From contig JAFSYY010000119.1 in assembly GCA_017455845.1 (NCBI GenBank), forward strand, positions 14,678-78,677: a DNA stretch of 64,000 nt, in the 5' to 3' direction. The number at the start of each line of letters is the position of its first letter. Position 1 is the stretch's first letter. The DNA is from Prevotella sp. (GTDB lineage Bacteria > Bacteroidota > Bacteroidia > Bacteroidales > Bacteroidaceae). Below, piece by piece: positions 12,105 through 54,917 of the stretch. A model generated the notes under the pieces. The model was not told the DNA's origin. It worked only from the letters and a program-made list of their open reading frames with translations, and did not search any database. The translations under genes and the position numbers were made by a program.

Positions 12105-13685
12105 ATGTTTATAACGACCATACATTTGACAAACAATAAAAATAGCCTGCGCACGGCAAGATGCACAGGCCTGATATTTGTTGCCATCTTGTTATTCAGC
12201 CCCGCAGGGCTGCTTCGGGCGCAGTCGCTCTATTACCAGAAGGCCGACGGCAAGAGCGGCAAGGAACTGAAGACCGCCCTTCATCAGATTATCAGGATGC
12301 CCGACGTGATAGACTACGACTCGCTGTGGCATGCCTACCAGATGACCGATGCCCGTCCCATGGGCGACAGCCTGATTATCTGGGACATGTATTCGGCCGT
12401 CTCGCGCTACAGTATCTACAGTAAACTGCACGGCAACGGCAAGGTGGAAGGCGAGAAAGGCTTCCAGCGCGAGCACTCCATGCCCAAGAGTTGGTTCAAC
12501 CCTACCGACCGCACCGCCAGCGGCACGCTGACCTACAAGGACATCAAGCCCATGTATTCGGACATTGTCCATGTGATACCCACCGACGGCACGGTGAACA
12601 ACAAGCGTTCGAACAATGCCTACGGTGAGGTGAGCGACTCGGCCAAGATGGAATGGATCTCGGCCGAAGGCTTCAGCAAGCAGAGCAAGAAAGGCGGCTG
12701 CACCACCCCGGGCTGGCAGGAATATCTGGGCGACGAGGCCAAGAAATCGCGTGTCTTCGAGCCCAACGATGAGTACAAGGGCGACCTGGCACGCATCTAT
12801 TTCTATATGGCCACGTGCTACGAGGACACCATAGACACCTGGACCAGTCCGATGCTCGACTCGCTGCGTACCGGCGGTTATCAGCCCTTCGCCCCGTGGG
12901 CTTTCGACATGCTGATGCGGTGGTCCAAGCAGGATCCTGTCAGTGAGAAGGAGATCAACCGCAACGAGGTGTGCTACAGGCTGCAGGGCAACCGCAACCC
13001 CTTCGTCGACTACCCCGGCCTGGAGGACTATATCTGGGGCGACAAGCAGGAGGAGCCCTTTGACTATGGCGGTGAGCCGATGGGCGAAGAGCCGATGGCC
13101 GCCGACTGTGAGATAGCCCTGAACAGCAGTGCCTTCGGCGTGGACTGGACGGCTACCGACAACCTGCGCGACTACTTCGAGCGCATACCCCTGACATATA
13201 GCCAGGACGGCGTCGACGTGACCTTCGCCTACGGCATCGAGGGCAGCCAGATGTATTGCGACGAGGGGCAGATACGCCTCTACAACAGGAACACACTGAC
13301 ATTCCTGGCCCACAAGAACGAGATGACCTGCATAGAGTTTGACGTGCCGGAGAAATCGGCCGACAAGGAACTCATACCCTCTGTCGGCGAGGTGGAGGGC
13401 AACACATGGACCGGCCAAGCCCGCGAGGTGCAGTTCACCTCGACCTATACCAGCGGCTACCCCGCAGCCCTCTACAGGAGCAAGCATATCCAGATTGCCG
13501 GCGTAAGAATCACGATGGCCGAGTCGTCGGGCATCGTCGCTACGCTAACGAATGGTGAAACAGTGAATAGTGCAATCTACGACCTCCAGGGCCGCCGTAT
13601 GAATAATTCTTCACTATTCACTCTTCACTCTTCACTTACCCCGGGCATCTACATCAGGAATGGCAAGAAAATCATCATCAGATAA
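12105..13685 (+). CDS. Endonuclease I family secreted nuclease 1 with C-terminal sorting domain
   Basis: REHSMPKSW, HVIPTDGTVNNKRSN, KGDLARIYFYM, GNRNPFVDYP; ends YDLQGRR...GIYIRNGKKIIIR. Start codon uncertain. Confidence 0.9.
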   Translation: MFITTIHLTNNKNSLRTARCTGLIFVAILLFSPAGLLRAQSLYYQKADGKSGKELKTALHQIIRMPDVIDYDSLWHAYQMTDARPMGDSLIIWDMYSAVSRYSIYSKLHGNGKVEGEKGFQREHSMPKSWFNPTDRTASGTLTYKDIKPMYSDIVHVIPTDGTVNNKRSNNAYGEVSDSAKMEWISAEGFSKQSKKGGCTTPGWQEYLGDEAKKSRVFEPNDEYKGDLARIYFYMATCYEDTIDTWTSPMLDSLRTGGYQPFAPWAFDMLMRWSKQDPVSEKEINRNEVCYRLQGNRNPFVDYPGLEDYIWGDKQEEPFDYGGEPMGEEPMAADCEIALNSSAFGVDWTATDNLRDYFERIPLTYSQDGVDVTFAYGIEGSQMYCDEGQIRLYNRNTLTFLAHKNEMTCIEFDVPEKSADKELIPSVGEVEGNTWTGQAREVQFTSTYTSGYPAALYRSKHIQIAGVRITMAESSGIVATLTNGETVNSAIYDLQGRRMNNSSLFTLHSSLTPGIYIRNGKKIIIR

Positions 13686-13729: not shown

Positions 13730-15412
13730 ATGAAGACAAGACTATTACTGACATTCCTCGTGACCCTGTGTGCCGTCGGCATGCAGGCTCAGGGACCGAA
13801 TAACTCAGGTACTTATTATCGCAACGCCAACGGCAAGAGCGGCGAGGCACTGAAGACGGCTCTCTATGGCATCATCTCGAAGAAGACCCACTCGCCCAGT
13901 TACGACGAACTGATAACACTCTACGAGATCACCGACACCCGTGCCGACGGCTGTGTGCGCGACTGGTACTCTAACATCACTCACTTTACGCATGGCAAGG
14001 ACAAGGCCGGCAGTTACAAGAAGGAGGGCGATGTGTACAACCGCGAGCACAGTGTGCCGCAGAGTTGGGGTGCACCGAAGGCCGACATTGTGCATGTCGT
14101 ACCCACCGACGGCTACGTGAACAACCGCCGAGGCAACTACCCCTTCGGCGAGGTGGGCAACATCACCTACCAGTCGGCCAACGGCTACAGCAAACTGGGC
14201 TCTTGCAAGACGGCCGGCTACAGCGGCACCGTGTTCGAGCCCAACGACGAGGTGAAGGGCGACATCGCACGCATCTATTTCTATATGGCCACCTGCTACG
14301 AGGGCTCATGCCAGAACTGGGGCAACGATGTGTTCACTGGCACCAAGTATCAGCCCATGGCGCAGTGGGCCTTCGATATGATGGTACGCTGGTCGAAACT
14401 CGACCCCGTGGACGAGGTGGAGATAGCCCGCAACAATGCTGTGGCACGCACCGACGTGCAGGGCAACCGCAACCCCTTTGTTGACTATCCCGGCCTGGAG
14501 GACTATGTCTGGGGCGACAAGAAGAGCGAGGCCTTCAGTTACGACAACTACCAGGGAGGCGGTGGCGGCACGGTCGTCACCGAGCGTGTGGAGCAGCCGG
14601 TATTTTCGCCCGATGGCGGTACCTTTACCGACCGCGTCGAGGTGACCATCACCACTGCCACCGAGGGTGCCACCATCTACTATACCACCAACGGTGCCGA
14701 GGCATCCGTCAATAGCAAGGTATATGAGGACCCCATCACGCTGACCTCCAACACCACGCTGAAGGCCATCGCCGTGAAAGAGGGCATGAGCACCAGTTAC
14801 CAGACCACGGCCAACTTTGTCATCACCAGCAGCGGCGGCACATCGGAACCCACCGATGTCGTTGACATCGCCCTGAACAACAGTCTCTTCGGCACCGCTT
14901 GCGACGGCTCGCTCTCTGGTGGCGACCTCAAGGCCTATACAGGCACGAAGAATGGCATCACCGTGACCTACGACAAAGGAACGGGCAGCAATATGTATCT
15001 CAACGATGCCCAGTTGCGCGTCTATCCGGGCAACACCCTGACCATCAGCACCGCCAATGGCACACTCTCGGAAGTGGAGTTCACCATCGTGCTCAACAAG
15101 AACGGCAAGACCATCGAGGCTACCACGGGCACCGTGGCCGACGGCATCTGGACGGGCAATGCCCAGAGCGTCACCTTCAATGTGAACAGCGGCAGCGGAC
15201 ACATCCAACTCTCGCAGGCCAAGGTGAAATGCACCTCATCCTCGGGCGTAAGCGCTTTGCTAATGAATAATGAAGAAAGAATAGTGAATATCTACGACCT
15301 GCAGGGCCGCAGGATTTCCAGTGCGGAAGCAAATTTTTCACTCTTCACTCTTCACTCTTCACTTATTAAAAGGGGTCTCTACATTGTTAACGGCAAAAAA
15401 GTAATCAAGTAA
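13730..15412 (+). CDS. Endonuclease I family secreted nuclease 2 with chitobiase/Fn3-associated domain and sorting domain
   Basis: NREHSVPQSW, KGDIARIYFYM, GNRNPFVDYP; PVFSPDGG...ATIYYTTNG; YDLQGRR...GLYIVNGKKVIK. Confidence 0.9.
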   Translation: MKTRLLLTFLVTLCAVGMQAQGPNNSGTYYRNANGKSGEALKTALYGIISKKTHSPSYDELITLYEITDTRADGCVRDWYSNITHFTHGKDKAGSYKKEGDVYNREHSVPQSWGAPKADIVHVVPTDGYVNNRRGNYPFGEVGNITYQSANGYSKLGSCKTAGYSGTVFEPNDEVKGDIARIYFYMATCYEGSCQNWGNDVFTGTKYQPMAQWAFDMMVRWSKLDPVDEVEIARNNAVARTDVQGNRNPFVDYPGLEDYVWGDKKSEAFSYDNYQGGGGGTVVTERVEQPVFSPDGGTFTDRVEVTITTATEGATIYYTTNGAEASVNSKVYEDPITLTSNTTLKAIAVKEGMSTSYQTTANFVITSSGGTSEPTDVVDIALNNSLFGTACDGSLSGGDLKAYTGTKNGITVTYDKGTGSNMYLNDAQLRVYPGNTLTISTANGTLSEVEFTIVLNKNGKTIEATTGTVADGIWTGNAQSVTFNVNSGSGHIQLSQAKVKCTSSSGVSALLMNNEERIVNIYDLQGRRISSAEANFSLFTLHSSLIKRGLYIVNGKKVIK

Positions 15413-21740: not shown

Positions 21741-21879
21741 TTTTGTATTTGGGCTGAATACAACTTGTATTCCGGCTGTATACAAAAAGTATTCCGGCTG
21801 TATACAAACTGTATTCGGCCTGAATACAAGTTGTATACAGCCGGAAGACTTTTTGTATACAGTTTCGATACTCCGGCGA
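21741..21879. repeat. Dispersed ~140-bp element with 22-bp periodicity, copy 1
   Basis: Alternating gtattccggctgtatac / gtattcggcctgaatac units. An inverted homolog lies at 50970-51135. Confidence 0.9.
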
Positions 21880-34529: not shown

Positions 34530-37474
<2,945 letters not shown>

Positions 37475-45406: not shown

Positions 45407-48400
45407 CTATTCGAAATGGAGTATTGCTGAGTAGACGTGTGTACCGGTGACGAAATGGGGCTGTGCCGACGGGCCGTTGAGGTCGGTGGTGTTCACCTTG
45501 TTGCGCACGGCGGGGATGTGTTCCAGCAGTGCGAGGCCGGTCTGGGGCAGGTCGTAAAGGATATGGTCGCGCCCGTCGCGGGGGGTAAAGACACCGACGT
45601 ATGCGGGATATTGGAGGACGTGGGACGGCTCAATGCCGATGGTGCCTTCGCTGGTCTGTAGTTGCATCCACTGCACGCCGGCGAAATAGCCCTTGAACTC
45701 AGGGTACTGCCACGACTCGCCAGGGATGGGGTCGTTGTAGTCGGTCTCGTAATAGCCATACTGCGGCCCTTCCATACGGTTCTGCCATACGCGGTAGGGG
45801 CCGCAGCCCACCCATCGCTTGCTCTTCACCTTTTCTTCGGGATAGTCGAAGCAGATGCCCATCAGGTCGACGACGCCGTTGAAGGTGGCACTGGCCGAAA
45901 GCATCACGCTGCCGTCATCGAAGAAGCACCAGTCTACGGTCTGCAGGCTGCCGTGGCGGTAGCGGGCCGTCAGCACGCCGTCGTTGAACTCGAAGCCGGC
46001 AAACGCACCTTGGTCTGTGTATTCGGTGTACTGCGTCTTCTTCTTGAAGGCTTCCTTGTCGTCGTGGTTATAAAAACCGTCGTCGCTGCGGTCGCTGCGC
46101 TTGGCGGCCACAAAACGCGGGCCGTTGAGTGACAGGTGAGAGGTGTTGGCGGGAGAGCCGCCAGCCACAGCGACGCTCAGCAGGCGGCCGTCGTGCTTGG
46201 AGAAGGTGTAAGAAGCCGGGCCTACCGTCACCGTCAGCGCATCATCTGTTTCGGTCGTGGTTGGAGTCACCGGGCCAAAGACGAAGTCTGAAGGAAACTG
46301 GTGTCTTTTCAGGAAACGCCATGTCATCACCTCCTGACCATGCGGGTTGGTGGCGGTGAGTTCGAGCAGGTCACCATTGCCTTTCGGCAAAGGAAGGGTG
46401 ACGCTTTCGCCAGGCTCTGTTGAAGGCAATGGTATTGCACCCTCGCTGACGGCCTTTTCTGCCGTGGCGCCGTAGCGTGGCAGGTTCATCCAGCGGTAGC
46501 GCAGGGAACAGTCCTTCAGGTTGGTGAAGTTATAGGTGTTTGTGACGGTGATTTCTTTGCCGAGCAGCAAGTGCTGAGAGTTAAAAGTAGGGAGTTCAGG
46601 GCTGGTAGCCGTGATCTGGATAGGACTCCACACCTCTTTGATAGTATAGTAACTGCCCTCGCGCTCGCCGTGCGGCCCTACGATGCCGTCGGAGCCGAAG
46701 TTGCCGACGGGGTCTAAGAGTTGAGAGGGAGTTACAGACCCCACCCCGGCCTTCGGCCACCCCTCCCCTTTTTGCGTCCCTTCGGTAGCAAGCGCCCGCA
46801 AGCGGTCGAGCGGAAGGGAGGGGAGCGGCTGCGCGTTGTTTATCCAGTCGGTGCGCAGTACGGCCTGGTCTTGCAGGTCCCAGAGGAAGCCGCCGGCACA
46901 GCGGGGATTCTGCATCATCAGTTGCCAGTAGTCCTTCAGGCCTGCACCGTGGCCGCCATCGTAGAGACCGTGCAGAAACTCGGTGGGCATGAAGATTTCC
47001 TTCTGTCGCATATACTCCGCCGTCTCGCCCCACGAGCGGTAGTGCTTCGTCTCGAAGCCGTTGCGGTTGGCCCAGGGGTAGAGCACCACGCGCTGCTGCG
47101 GGTCGAATTGATGGAACACCGGCTCTATGTCGTAGTTGAAGCCGCCCTCGTTGCCGTTGCTCCAGAAAATGATGCTGGGGTGGTTGACATCGCGGGTGAC
47201 CATCTCCTCGGCAATCTGCGAGCCGATGATGGTCTCGTGTGCCCAGTGCCAGCCCGGCAGTTCGCACTCCACGTAGAGACCCAGGGAGTCGCAGGCGTCG
47301 AGAAACTCGGGGTCGGCGGGGTAGTGGGAGAGGCGCACGGCGTTCATGTTCATGCTCTTAATCAGCAGCACATCCTCAATGTTCTTCGCCTTCGACAGCG
47401 TGCGGCCGCTCTCCGGGCGGAACGAATGGCGGTTCACGCCCTTGATGATAACCTTCCGGCCATTAACAAACACGCCGTCTTCATCGCAGCCGTAGATATG
47501 CGCAGCCGCTCCCCTCCCTTGCAGGGACTCGTGCGCAGCCGCTCCCCTCCCTTGCAGGGACTCATGCGCAGCCGCTCCCCTCCCTTGCAGGGGAGGGGTC
47601 GGGGGTGGGGTCGCTAACTTATAACTGTGCCGATATTCTATGGTTCGGAAGCCGAAGCGCTGGCGCTCCGTATGCAGCGGTTTCCCCGCGGCATCCTTGA
47701 GGGTGAAGACGGCGGTGTAGAGGTTGGGGGTCTCTACAGTCCATCGTTTCGGATTCTCAACGGTGATGTCGAGGCAGGCGTGGTCGCTGGCGATGGAAAG
47801 GGGGGAACTTTTTCCCACGGACTTGCCCTTTGCATCGATAATATCTACGCTTACCGAACAGCCGGGCAGGGCACGGCTCAGGAACACATCGGCCTGGAAG
47901 CGGCCGTCCATGCCGGCATTGATGGCCACGCGCTGAATATTCTGCATGGGCTTGGCCACTACAAAGACGGGGCGCCAGATGCCGCCGAAGTTCCAGTAGT
48001 CGGCACGCCGCTCGGCGAGGTTCACCTGCGGGTTGGTGCTCTCCTTCAGCACCTCCACTTCCAAGCGGTTCTTCTTGTTTCCGAAAAACACACGGTCGCT
48101 CACATCAATAGTATGGCGGGTAAAGCCGCCCTGATAGGTGCCGTTGCCGGCTTTCCGGCCGTTGATGGTGACGCGGGCCTCTGTGAAGACGGCTTCGAAG
48201 ACAAGCAGGATCTGTCGGCCCTGCCACTCCTGCGGCAGCAAGAACTCCGTCTTATACAGGCCATGCTCGTCGGCGATGCCCTCGGGCGTGGCCTTGCCAT
48301 AGAAGCGCATGCCATACTGATAGGTGCCGAAGCCCTGCAGTTCCCAGCAGGAGGGCACGCCGATCTTCGTCCACTGGCCGGCACGCCGTCCGTCGGTGCA

Positions 48401-50950: not shown

Positions 50951-50969
50951 AGTATGGAGAATCAGGAGA

Positions 50970-51135
50970 TAGCCAGAAGTATCGAAACTGTATAGCCAGA
51001 AGTATCGAAACTGTATACAACTCGTCTTCCGGCTGTATACAACTTGTATTCGGCCGGAATACAATTTGTATTCAGCCGGAATACATTTTGTATACAGCCT
51101 AAATACATTTTGTATTCAGCCTGAATACAGTTTGT
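50970..51135. repeat. Dispersed 22-bp-periodic element, copy 2 (inverted relative to copy 1)
   Basis: Shares agtatcgaaactgtatacaa..gtcttccggctgtatacaacttgtattc with the reverse complement of 21741-21879. Confidence 0.9.
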
Positions 51136-51346: not shown

Positions 51347-51976
51347 ATGGACATCAAGAAACAATTCGCACAGAAACTGATGGACATCAAAGCCATCAAA
51401 CTGCAGCCCGACGCCCCGTTTACATGGGCCAGCGGCTGGAAATCGCCCATCTATACCGACAACCGCAAGACGCTGGGGCACAGCGGCGTGCGCTCGTTTG
51501 TGAAACTCGAACTATGCCACCTCATCCAGGAACACTTCCCTGAGGCCGAGGCCGTGGCAGGCGTGGCAACAGGAGCCATCGCACAGGGTGCGCTGGTGGC
51601 CGATGAACTGTGTCTGCCCTACTGCTACGTGCGTCCGAAGCCGAAAGACCACGGCATGGGCAACCAGGTGGAAGGCGAGATCAAGAAGGGTGCAAAGGTG
51701 ATTGTCGTAGAGGACCTGATATCCACCGGCGGCAGCAGTCTGAAGGCTGTGGCTGCCCTGCGCGACTATGGCGTGGAGGTCATCGGCATGGTGGCATCGT
51801 TCACCTACGGCTTCCCCGTGGCCGAGGAGGCATTCCGTGAGGCCGGCGTCAGGCTGATAACGCTCTCCGACTATGATGCCGTTATCGAGCAGGCTGCCGC
51901 GACGGGCTATATCAAGGAAAGCGAAAAGGCTGTGTTGGCTGAATGGAGAAAAGACCCCAGTGTATGGGGCATATAA
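51347..51976 (+). CDS. pyrE: Orotate phosphoribosyltransferase
   Basis: WASGWKSPIYTD, VVEDLISTGGS. Confidence 0.97.
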   Translation: MDIKKQFAQKLMDIKAIKLQPDAPFTWASGWKSPIYTDNRKTLGHSGVRSFVKLELCHLIQEHFPEAEAVAGVATGAIAQGALVADELCLPYCYVRPKPKDHGMGNQVEGEIKKGAKVIVVEDLISTGGSSLKAVAALRDYGVEVIGMVASFTYGFPVAEEAFREAGVRLITLSDYDAVIEQAAATGYIKESEKAVLAEWRKDPSVWGI

Positions 51977-51986
51977 AGAATAATGA

Positions 51987-52406
51987 ATGGCTATGAAGAA
52001 ATTTGAAAGCAGTATTAAGCAGGTGCCTTATCCTCAGGAGGCTGTCTATCGTAATATCAGTGACCTGAGCAACCTGGAGCGGGTGCGCGACCGTGTGCCC
52101 CAGGATAAGTTGAAGGAGTTTTCTTTCGACCAGGACTCCGTAACTGTCAGTGTGGACCCCGTGGGAAAGGTCACGTTGCGTATCGTGGACCGTGAGGAGC
52201 CTAAGTGCGTGAAGTTTGAGACCACACAGTCGCCCATGCCCTTTAACCTCTGGATCCAGGTACTCCATGTCAGCGAGAGCACCTCGAAGATGAAGGTGAC
52301 GGTGCAGGCCGACATCCCCTTCATGCTGGCCGGCATGGTGAGCGGCCCTATCCAGGACGGCGTAGAGAAGATTGCCGACGCACTGGCACAGATACCGTAT
52401 GAATAA
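51987..52406 (+). CDS. SRPBCC family protein
   Basis: Typical Bacteroidales gene after pyrE; VYRNISDLSNL. Confidence 0.75.
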   Translation: MAMKKFESSIKQVPYPQEAVYRNISDLSNLERVRDRVPQDKLKEFSFDQDSVTVSVDPVGKVTLRIVDREEPKCVKFETTQSPMPFNLWIQVLHVSESTSKMKVTVQADIPFMLAGMVSGPIQDGVEKIADALAQIPYE

Positions 52407-52938
52407 GTGAAGAATGAAGAGTGAAGAGTGAAGAATTTGCTACCGCTGTCATGACTAACTATAAAAGAGAAGGTGGACCACTGCATATAAAAAGTTATGC
52501 TTTTGCAGTTAGAATAGTAAAAATGTTCCTACATTTTACTGATAGCGATTGGAAGTTGCAAGCCATATACAAACAGATTTTACGATCAGGAACTTCTATT
52601 TCTGCTAATGTTCATGAATCAGAATTTGCTCAAAGTCCTTCAGACTTCGCTTTCAAACTTCACATCGCATTAAAAGAAGCCAATGAAACCATGAATTGGC
52701 TGAATCTGTTGCATGATACCGACATCTTGTCAGAAAAAGAATTCGATAGTATGTCAAAGGATTGCAATGAGGTAATAGCATTATTAATTGCATCAATAAA
52801 AACGATAAAAAAAAATAATCAAATAAAATAGAAGCGAGGTGATAAGAAAAGAATTGCGGTAGCCGCTCGGCTTTGCCGCTTTTACAAAGCGTAGCGACTA
52901 AAAGAAATTCTTCACTCTTCACTCTTCACTATTCACTC
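52400..52938. mobile_element. Putative element: four-helix-bundle gene bracketed by inverted 7-bp arrays
   Basis: Perfect 24-bp inverted repeat at 52415-52438 and 52905-52928; AT-rich interior. Mobility is inferred, not shown. Confidence 0.6.
52451..52831 (+). CDS. Four helix bundle protein (23S rRNA IVS-protein / TIGR02436-like)
   Basis: KSYAFAVRIVK...QILRSGTSISANVHE...DFAFKLHIALKEANETMNWLNLL. Confidence 0.92.
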   Translation: MTNYKREGGPLHIKSYAFAVRIVKMFLHFTDSDWKLQAIYKQILRSGTSISANVHESEFAQSPSDFAFKLHIALKEANETMNWLNLLHDTDILSEKEFDSMSKDCNEVIALLIASIKTIKKNNQIK

Positions 52939-52942
52939 TATT

Positions 52943-54277
52943 ATGAAACTCTGGGAAAAAGACTTTGAAATCAACAGCGAGATAGAGCGGTTCACCGTGG
53001 GCAGAGACCGCGAGATGGACCTTTATCTGGCACCCTACGACGTGCTGGGGTCAATGGCACACATCACCATGCTCGAGAGCATCGGACTGCTGGGCAAGGA
53101 CGAACTGCCCGTGCTGCTGAAAGAACTGAGAAACATCTATGAGATGACGCAGCGCGGCGAGTTTGTGATTGAAGACGGCATCGAGGACGTGCACTCGCAG
53201 GTGGAACTGATGCTCACCCGCAAACTGGGCGACATGGGCAAGAAGATCCATTCGGGCCGCTCGCGCAACGACCAGGTGCTGGTGGACCTGAAACTTTTTA
53301 CACGACATCAGTTGCAACTGGTGGCCGAGAGCGTCAAGGATCTCTTCGACCAACTCATTGCCAAGAGCAACCAGTATAAGGACGTGCTGATGCCGGGCTA
53401 CACACACCTGCAGGTGGCCATGCCCAGTTCGTTCGGACTGTGGTTCGGTGCCTACGCCGAGAGCCTCTGCGACGACATGCTGTTTCTGCAGGCCGCCTAT
53501 AAGATGACCAACCGCAACCCCCTGGGGTCGGCCGCCGGCTATGGCTCGTCGTTCCCCCTGAACCGCCAGATGACCACCGACCTGCTGGGCTTCGACACGA
53601 TGGACTATAACGTGGTGTATGCGCAGATGGGGCGCGGGAAGATGGAGCGTAACGTGGGCTTCGCCATTGCCACCATTGCCGGCACGATGGCCAAACTGGC
53701 TTTCGATGCCTGTATGTTCAACTGCCAGAACTTCGGCTTCGTGAAACTGCCCAAGGAGTGTACCACGGGCTCGAGCATCATGCCTCACAAGAAAAACCCC
53801 GACGTCTTTGAGTTGATTCGTTCGAAGAGCAACAAACTGCAGAGCCTGCCCTATCAGGTGACGCTGATGATGAACAACCTGCCCGTGGGCTACTTCCGCG
53901 ACCTGCAGATTATCAAGGAGGTCTTCCTGCCTGCCTTCGACGAACTGCTCGACTGCCTGCGCATGACGGCATACATTATTAATAAGATAGAGGTGAACGA
54001 CCATATCCTCGACGATGAGCGCTACGACCCGATGTTCTCGGTAGAGGAGGTCAACCGCCTCGCGGCCAACGGCATGCCCTTCCGCGATGCCTACAAGAAG
54101 GTGGGGCTCGACATCGAGGCCGGCCGCTTCACACCCAACAAGGCCATCCATCACACCCATGAGGGTAGTATCGGCAACCTCTGCAACGACCGCATAGAAG
54201 CCTTGATGAACAGCGTGCTCGAAGGTTTTGCCTTCGACCGCGTAAAGCAGGCGGAAAAACGGTTAATTAATTCATAA
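52943..54277 (+). CDS. argH: Argininosuccinate lyase
   Basis: HSGRSRNDQ, PGYTHLQ, GSSIMPHKKNPD. Confidence 0.97.
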   Translation: MKLWEKDFEINSEIERFTVGRDREMDLYLAPYDVLGSMAHITMLESIGLLGKDELPVLLKELRNIYEMTQRGEFVIEDGIEDVHSQVELMLTRKLGDMGKKIHSGRSRNDQVLVDLKLFTRHQLQLVAESVKDLFDQLIAKSNQYKDVLMPGYTHLQVAMPSSFGLWFGAYAESLCDDMLFLQAAYKMTNRNPLGSAAGYGSSFPLNRQMTTDLLGFDTMDYNVVYAQMGRGKMERNVGFAIATIAGTMAKLAFDACMFNCQNFGFVKLPKECTTGSSIMPHKKNPDVFELIRSKSNKLQSLPYQVTLMMNNLPVGYFRDLQIIKEVFLPAFDELLDCLRMTAYIINKIEVNDHILDDERYDPMFSVEEVNRLAANGMPFRDAYKKVGLDIEAGRFTPNKAIHHTHEGSIGNLCNDRIEALMNSVLEGFAFDRVKQAEKRLINS

Positions 54278-54383
54278 TGCATAATTCCTAATTCATAATT
54301 CATAATTCATAATATCGAAGATGATATCACCTCAAAAAGCACGGCGCAGCCAATTATGCATTATGCATTATGCATTATGCATT
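54269..54383. repeat. Inverted 7-bp arrays (AATTCAT)6 ... (ATTATGC)4 around a ~39-bp core
   Basis: Overlaps the argH stop and the start of the next gene. Confidence 0.9.
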
Positions 54384-54917
54384 GCCATGCTCTTTTGCGC
54401 TTGCGAGGCCGACAACCTCTATAGTTCGGCCTACTGTAACTTTATGTTCCAGGCCTCCCTCTTTCCCACCAGCGCACTGACACGCGCCGTGTCGGGTGCG
54501 GGAGGCGACTTCTGCATCGTAAAAGCCGTGCTGGAGAAAGGCACCTACCACCTCAAACTCACACCCAACCAAGGCTCTTACGACAAGGCCGACCTCGACT
54601 TGGCCATGACCACGGCTATCGGCAACGAACGCATCAACTACAACACGATGGGCAAGAAGATGGGGCTTATTATCGGCCGCACCTACAGCGGCATGCTCTG
54701 CGCCTACGACCTGCAGTGCCCCAACTGCGATTTCAACTACGAACTGAGATGGGGCGAGAAGGCTCACGAACTCATTTGCGACAAATGCAAGCGTACCTAC
54801 GACATCTACGGTGAATACAGTTACGTGAAGAGCGGCGACGAGGGCAGACCATTGGAACAGTATAAACGCGTCTATTACTATCAGGACAGGGGAATACTCT
54901 CTGTGCAAAACCCGTAG
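54321..54917 (+). CDS. Putative lipoprotein with paired CxxC (Rieske-like/metal-binding) motifs
   Basis: LFCAC lipobox-like; AYDLQCPNC...LICDKCKRTY. Confidence 0.7.
   Translation: MISPQKARRSQLCIMHYALCIAMLFCACEADNLYSSAYCNFMFQASLFPTSALTRAVSGAGGDFCIVKAVLEKGTYHLKLTPNQGSYDKADLDLAMTTAIGNERINYNTMGKKMGLIIGRTYSGMLCAYDLQCPNCDFNYELRWGEKAHELICDKCKRTYDIYGEYSYVKSGDEGRPLEQYKRVYYYQDRGILSVQNP

Follow-up and report, generated by a model that had tools for sequence, protein, structure and literature searches.

The 23S rRNA gene of Coxiella burnetii carries an intervening sequence (IVS) with three to four heptamer repeats ahead of an open reading frame (ORF) and a 28-bp stem, in which RNase III cuts at the first repeat (available text of PMC4990558). 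ORF-bearing rRNA insertions are also described in CPR bacteria (10.1101/2024.02.27.582315, available portion). RAYT genes, which lie between inverted copies of the dispersed REP/REPIN repeats, are described in the accessible part of PMC3116915 as immobile single copies. Rickettsia palindromic elements are short repeats found in frame in unrelated genes and translated (available text of PMC10969869 and PMC3184786), and heptameric simple repeats were published as being in excess in Xanthomonas and Nostoc, most often as runs of four units at stop codons, for which the accessible text gives no cause (PMC4692102). In Avd, the accessory protein of diversity-generating retroelements (DGRs), five protomers grip an RNA stem-loop (10.1101/2023.10.23.563531, available part).

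We analyzed a window of 64,000 nucleotides from Prevotella sp., on contig C75 of assembly G000 (2.43 Mb, 68% complete), in which a 530-bp cassette consists of a four-helix-bundle (4HB) protein gene between two mirror-image 40-nt heptamer arms. As far as the available accounts go, the cassette shares with the 23S rRNA IVS its protein family, an AT-rich ORF in a stem of about 28 bp made by terminal inverted repeats, three to four heptamers before the start and a patchy distribution; unlike the IVS, it lies between protein genes in mRNA rather than in a 16S or 23S rRNA gene, occupies many junctions, and its arms are also dispersed alone. As with REPIN and RAYT, a gene lies between inverted copies of a repeat that is dispersed in the genome, doublets without a gene occur, and repeat families track gene families (accessible part of PMC3116915). 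However, the 4HB protein is not a Y1 HUH tyrosine transposase, and its gene changes sites, unlike the RAYTs with their reported immobility. A single arm forms no palindrome (z -0.1), and the arms are not mostly extragenic inverted doublets, a third being intragenic. Like the Rickettsia elements, 31 arms are inserted in unrelated ORFs without closing the reading frame, but those elements are described as palindromes of about 150 bp, whereas the arms are tandem heptamers of about 40 nt tied to one gene family. The Xanthomonas and Nostoc repeats resemble the arms in period 7, preference for four units, sense-strand location at stops and some inverted pairs; their available description includes no protein-family link, and the units studied here vary widely around a weak K-T-R-A-N-R-D consensus. 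The 4HB protein has the four-helix fold of Avd, and solved family members are pentamers, yet identity to Avd is 14%, and the cassette is not linked to a reverse transcriptase, a template repeat or a variable repeat, its neighbors being housekeeping genes. Insertion sequences and MITEs differ as well, since no duplication is seen at the window site or in the alignments listed and doublet spacers are unrelated to cassette interiors.

The 4HB family and the heptamer excess with its four-unit mode at stops were already known, and the cassette works like IVSs, REPIN-RAYT and Rickettsia elements while lacking a defining property of IVSs, REPINs, IS/MITEs and DGRs. New here are an allelic series and host tree at one junction, evidence against excision scars, an examination of the master role over 240 genomes, and a parallel with GxxExxY genes. 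No description of arm-flanked 4HB genes outside rRNA was found in the literature searched, which lay mostly outside subscription journals and supplements. The reading that we favor, at a probability of roughly 0.45, is that the cassette is a relative of the IVS that resides in mRNA junctions; its Avd-like protein probably binds the arms and probably aids their copying by transposase-free, replacement-type recombination.

The cassette and its protein

The original prediction described an AT-rich 126-aa gene in a GC-rich run, bracketed by a perfect 24-bp inverted repeat that reaches from the upstream stop to just before argH, without target-site duplication, and these features are borne out (Table 1). 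GC content is 0.32 in the 4HB gene and 0.54-0.58 in its neighbors (GC3 0.27 vs 0.73-0.80), and positions 52415-52438 are the exact reverse complement of 52905-52928, without perfect extension. The left arm begins directly behind the upstream stop TAA (52404-06) and ends 4 nt ahead of the 4HB start codon, the right array ends at 52936-38, ahead of the argH start at 52943, and no target-site duplication is seen at the window site. The full arm exceeds the 24 bp noted earlier, with four heptamers and a fixed tail making up 40 nt. The tail of the left arm is non-periodic, its last letters being GCTACCGC at 52446, and loose ends of other copies accumulate at the edges of this arm, 52404-06 and 52446-47 (four of four runs). 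Also missed before were an extra 8-bp stem, in which 52439-46 pairs with 52856-63, and a hairpin module that separates this mirror tail from the right array. The predicted RNA fold has a stem that encloses the 4HB gene, as had been proposed (z = -6.6; none of 100 shuffles as good). The module itself folds at -12.9 kcal/mol (z just -1.6). An Rfam search of the cassette returned nothing better than a chance match at E 0.32. Because a near-identical strain (L105, one of nine metagenome loci) has the module in both arms, arms are edited or converted within a species. The assignment of the upstream gene to SRPBCC is weakly supported, its PF10604 score of 26.7 bits being slightly below the cut-off of 27.4.

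Table 1. Features of the cassette and related elements (window positions unless a contig of G000 is given)
Feature	Position	Strand	Description
Upstream host gene, START/SRPBCC-like	51987..52406	+	Behind pyrE (51347-51976)
Left arm	52407..52446	+	Four heptamers (G/A)TGAAGA (52407-52434) and fixed tail ATTTGCTACCGC
4HB gene	52451..52831	+	126 aa, TIGR02436 / PF05635, GC3 0.27
Right-arm inner tail GCGGTAGC	52856..52863	+	Complementary to 52439-52446
41-nt hairpin module	52864..52904	+	Inserted in right-arm tail; 10 near-identical genome copies
Right-arm array	52905..52936	+	AAAT and four heptamers T(C/A)TTCAC; mirrors left arm
Downstream host gene argH	52943..54277	+	TIGR00838, 313 bits
Solo arm, same family	15323..15362	-	In frame, near C-terminus of ORF 13730-15412 (Endonuclease_1 and CHB_HEX_C)
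Array of same unit family without full tail	13610..13636	-	In frame near end of ORF 12189-13685
GxxExxY gene (L312)	C52:32735-33076
GxxExxY gene	C64:12590-12907
GxxExxY gene	C76:12301-12510

Several further repeats were observed along the way. The hairpin module enters the arm tail at a single precise position, with other copies on contigs C30, C64, C66, C78, C81 and C82 of G000 and in L105. A second module of about 35 nt lies ahead of the tail at about a dozen other sites, and loci L068, L096 and L147 hold further arm modules. Cyanobacterial STRR and SDR elements resemble the arms, SDR being small hairpin modules embedded in arrays, and a 2007 heptamer survey reportedly studied such repeats earlier. 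Right behind argH lies a second inverted heptamer pair of another family (54268-54313 and 54353-54383). Its right array apparently codes for some of the hydrophobic N-terminus of ORF 54321-54917, a protein with no Pfam or NCBIfam match. The window also has two arrays of similar sequence of a 22-23-nt repeat, unrelated to the heptamer arms (21743-21836 and 50969-51135), and 27-33-nt repeats with CCCCTCCCTTG-type cores (36963-37016 and 47498-47613), probably another dispersed palindrome family.

The 4HB protein scores 93.6 bits against TIGR02436 (cut-off 24) and 80.7 bits against PF05635 (cut-off 33.8), and its predicted structure (pLDDT 92.8) has four long helices in the fold of 2RLD and 2GSC, so that family membership holds by score as well as by fold. 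The model matches 2RLD (BT_0352) at TM 0.80, 2GSC (Xcc0516) at 0.72 and Avd (4DWL) at 0.67 with E 0.13, and the protein belongs to the same family as the ORF of the Coxiella IVS; the kinship with IVSs and the Avd-like fold named in the original prediction are both supported. Its 47% identity to 2RLD, which has five chains, suggests that it is a homopentamer. The gene is under purifying selection, with a median dN/dS of 0.046 in 23 of 55 pairs, the remaining 32 being saturated at synonymous sites, and residues S49, N53 and E56 are invariant. Close relatives of the gene come from Prevotella and Prevotellaceae, largely of the ruminant gut. These relatives (L110-L165) are still AT-rich (median GC3 0.39) despite largely saturated synonymous sites, and low GC in 4HB genes may be maintained rather than mark a recent arrival.

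Occupancy of junctions and linkage of gene to arms

The gene is far from fixed at this site. It was not found at the pyrE-side/argH junction in any of 24 drawn relatives with argH downstream, and among the best 28 DNA matches with both flanks it is present in 3 and absent from 25, one of the 3 being an internally deleted pseudogene (L068). Two alleles without insert (L073, L088) have an overlapping stop and start. Partial alleles consist of a left arm alone ahead of the ATG (L072), a short array with nothing else (L100) or one heptamer (L007), and others hold unrelated repeat doublets or other passenger genes. The window junction is an insertion hotspot, and its lone-arm alleles may be cassette scars. 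In L081:629-1353 (genome G066) the junction holds an NTase_sub_bind and Polbeta nucleotidyltransferase gene pair without heptamer arms, and in L070 a 177-aa ORF without assigned identity.

Elsewhere, a scan of one genome per species gave 56 close copies, with both arrays in 54 and both tails in 33 (patterns matched locus-wide). Together with that of the window, these 57 copies sit at 10 junction classes, the largest of which, with 31 copies, we take to be pta-ackA, class gene names being presumed from peptide motifs. A flanking-gene tree of 41 hosts places 8 filled alleles at 8 separate places and needs 8 changes, and a single clade of filled alleles is rejected (p-AU 1e-14); filled alleles were sought out, so that 8/41 is no frequency, and L066-L068, which repeat other loci, were excluded. 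At the window junction, sister hosts of filled alleles have arrays or other repeat doublets. Repeated gain and repeated loss fit this tree alike. Synonymous differences between same-site copies are 0.62-0.86 in the 4HB gene and 0.47-0.72 in the flanks; recent transfer between species at the window site is not supported because the former is no lower, and for the same reason repeated loss from an old insertion may also account for the pattern. Within species, the cassette differs at 4 of 1464 positions and the flanks at 34 of 2405 (three strain comparisons, maybe not independent), a hint that the cassette may have arrived recently at the window site.

The 4HB gene shares its direction with both neighbors in 26 of 34 loci, so that the cassette is mostly co-oriented inside operons. 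When contigs of 7 runs were aligned on two stretches, none of the joints listed connected one flank to the other across the cassette or an arm, but contigs broke at the arms, so that this does not speak against excision. A phage vehicle was set aside, with only five viral loci found, two of them with arms. The cassette is mobile, as the original prediction had suggested: it comes and goes at the window junction and, in relatives, is found at many more junctions.

All four TIGR02436 genes of G000 have inverted heptamer arrays, each of a different unit. An inverted match score of at least 12 is reached by 27 of 34 4HB family loci and by 7 of 623 ordinary control genes, an enrichment that the original prediction had proposed to look for, and when period 7 is demanded on both sides the counts are 12/34 and 3/623. 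In a larger set (the top 90 of 202 matches in relatives plus the four own genes), inverted arms flank 81 of 94 4HB loci, with a period of 7 in 53, 8 in 19, 10 in 6 and 9 in 2 (uncalled in 14). The period tracks the protein tree, a quick one, with 23 changes against a shuffled mean of 37.7 and none of 200 shuffles as low, although linkage alone would give such tracking. The gene-arm link is general in Bacteroidales. A universal heptamer consensus, K-T-R-A-N-R-D, was considered and discarded as evidence because it is weak (information 4.84 vs a null maximum of 4.32) and Coxiella, Xanthomonas and Nostoc units are not above random on it.

Whether the gene is the master of the dispersed arrays, as originally proposed, is a separate matter, on which the evidence is divided. 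On one side, 243 of 514 genome arrays share their exact unit with a 4HB arm of another genome (random 4%, shuffled 11%), and array polarity agrees with that of the cassette, left-type arrays after stop codons numbering 156 to 32. Across 60 relatives, array load rises with the number of 4HB genes (rho 0.58, and 0.80 for those outside the genus, kin not being independent). At most one array match is found in 12 of 20 genomes without a strong 4HB match and in 2 of 40 with one; outside the genus this holds for 7 of 8 genomes without a strong match. All 12 other genomes with at least 10 tailed arms hold some TIGR02436 gene (hand count). On the other side, tailed arms occur in 55 of 240 genus genomes, and among the 25 genomes with at least 5 of them a close gene copy (E<1e-30) is present in 9 and lacking in 16, while the arm pattern has no match in 17 of the 29 genomes that hold a close copy (both hand counts). 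Genomes G018 (99% complete, 3 contigs, 88 array matches), G032 and G034 have arrays but no TIGR02436/PF05635 match. All these cross-genome counts include related genomes that are not independent of one another, and genes flanked by repeats may be missing from assemblies. Arms can be abundant without a close gene copy, and a close copy does not by itself bring many arms.

The inverted-arm layout is also not specific to the 4HB protein, because unrelated GxxExxY genes (TIGR04256) have inverted arms too. Sixteen of 24 GxxExxY loci (L295-L318) reach an inverted score of at least 12, with units mostly of 8-11 nt and period 9 commonest; these cassettes are a parallel class with an unrelated protein. 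Given this parallel and the counter-counts across genomes, the 4HB gene is unlikely to be a strict cognate master, and the layout is better described as a cassette class whose period tracks the protein family.

An alternative that we regard as possible, though less likely than the favored reading, is that the arms are a selfish unit copied by host recombination or another enzyme, with small AT-rich genes riding between arm pairs. 4HB and GxxExxY genes would then swap sites by homologous exchange through the arms, and the protein would serve, for example, defense, addiction or autoregulation, details that are equally tentative. Arms outnumber 4HB genes by about 25 to 1 in the genome and are mostly solo, arm-rich genomes often lack a close gene and three lack the family, GxxExxY genes share the layout, and sister hosts of filled alleles keep arrays or other doublets at the same junction. 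Arm sites hold another repeat family in relatives in 8 of 39 comparisons, against 2 of 30 control junctions. Yet with just 3 of 623 ordinary genes between inverted period-7 arms, the passenger is clearly not just any gene; the two protein families differ in period, which is 7 in 53 of 80 called 4HB loci and in 1 of 15 GxxExxY loci; and, outside the genus, genomes without a strong 4HB match mostly have at most one array match.

The arm as an element of its own

The dispersed 7-bp repeat system of the original prediction is real and far above chance: the genome has 514 arrays at period 7, against 3 at period 6, 29 at 8 and 24 at 9, with 0-29 across the other periods from 4 to 12. The 13-nt non-periodic tail is found at 97 genome sites (one mismatch allowed), and the hairpin module at 10, nearly unchanged. 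Four units are the mode (38 of 97 tail matches, against 11 with five), and 93 arms have at least two units, 70 solo and 23 paired. By our own gene calling (1749 genes, the 4HB gene itself being missed), the start of the arm falls between -18 and +14 nt of a stop codon in 42 of 46 sense-strand intergenic cases, where the arm often provides that stop itself, and 1 of 43 arms lies at a convergent junction. Inside genes, 31 of 93 arms are in frame, 11 in sense and 20 in antisense. None of the 11 sense in-frame copies has the stop of the third unit, which is missing from only 3 of 48 intergenic ones. Compared with five close relatives, arms replace host bases without duplication among the alignments listed, array length varies among orthologous sites, and 39 site-by-relative comparisons gave the same arm family in 7, another family in 8 and none in 24. 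Arms are independent elements with fixed ends, usually of four units, and they land at stops and in frame in protein loops.

In one such loop (G000:C41:30110-30230), G000 has an arm doublet, G212 has the same family with a different spacer, and G219 and G366 have an unrelated palindromic family (L241, L242, L243). Fixed tails were not found in other heptamer families. Three ideas on the arm were dropped. Doublet spacers bear no relation to cassette interiors, which speaks against an origin as MITEs by internal deletion, and a match of five units to five subunits is at odds with the peak at four. That period 7 gives stops in all frames fits stop positions -4/-11/-18, but 9-base arms and stop-free units exist.

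The original prediction went further and suggested that the cassette is a master element whose arms are left behind as the solo arrays; doublets, too, would then be scars of excision or decay. The lone left arm, the short array, the single heptamer and the deleted pseudogene at the window junction may be such decay products. As a general account, however, this is improbable, because in-frame copies occur in both orientations, the spacers of gene-less doublets are unique (11 of 11) and without match to 28 cassette interiors save one of 11 nt (E 0.043), and no 4HB fragments were found in the genome outside the four 4HB genes, so that most solo arms are not cassette scars. That nothing moves at all, arrays arising locally by slippage and being kept as RNA-processing or translation signals, with the 4HB protein an RNA-binding regulator that has sites around its own gene, would suit the strong polarity, the near absence from convergent junctions and the variable array length, but is very doubtful because slippage cannot make a shared 13-nt tail or 41-nt module, and because one cassette sits at 10 junction classes with patchy occupancy among close relatives.

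Proposed mechanism and meaning

Reverse transcriptase (RVT_1) was found neither in G000 (68% complete) nor in G366 (46 arms, 92% complete); it is present in four of five other genomes tested, with no link to arms shown. The sole Y1_Tnp match of G000 (C35:4046-5129, L170) is weak (23.3 bits) and REP-associated-transposase-like, and a Y1 transposase was rejected as mover since the contig of this match has no period-7 arrays. The RNase III gene (rnc) is present in the genome.

Our favored reading, a relative of the IVS at mRNA junctions, draws on the Avd-like model, the grip of Avd on RNA, the heptamers and RNase III cut of the Coxiella IVS, and the presence of rnc. The cassette is usually co-oriented in operons; it starts right at a stop codon, and its other end lies a few bases ahead of a start. 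Read-through would transcribe it, and RNase III would cut the 24-32-bp stem, as in the Coxiella 23S IVS. The stand-alone arm, for its part, takes the place of host bases at stop codons or in protein loops. A pentamer like 2RLD and Avd would grip single-stranded arm RNA or DNA and hand it over to a polymerase or recombinase, either of the host or acting in trans. The protein would serve several arm families as a helper instead of being a strict cognate master. The gene would move when both arms are copied together, or by recombining into sites that already hold an arm. Arm binding, RNA cleavage and the helper role are suggested here by analogy with the systems named.

More speculatively, and rather unlikely on present evidence, 4HB genes could supply the protein of a hitherto undescribed class of mobile DNA that needs no transposase, in which an Avd-like ring measures and binds about four units and drives replacement copy-in at stops and protein loops, GxxExxY genes with 9-base arms being a sister class.

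Because 140 of the 514 arrays lie inside called genes, the system is actively adding loops to housekeeping proteins. The locus ties together three unexplained things, namely a widespread 4HB protein family, the bacterial excess of 7-base repeats and the ORF-bearing rRNA IVSs, and it names a concrete candidate ligand for a protein with solved structure. If the protein is needed for spread, this would be a new kind of DNA movement that needs no transposase, and a transposase-free class of this kind, if true, would account for the heptamer excess and for the origin of rRNA IVSs and of the DGR accessory protein.
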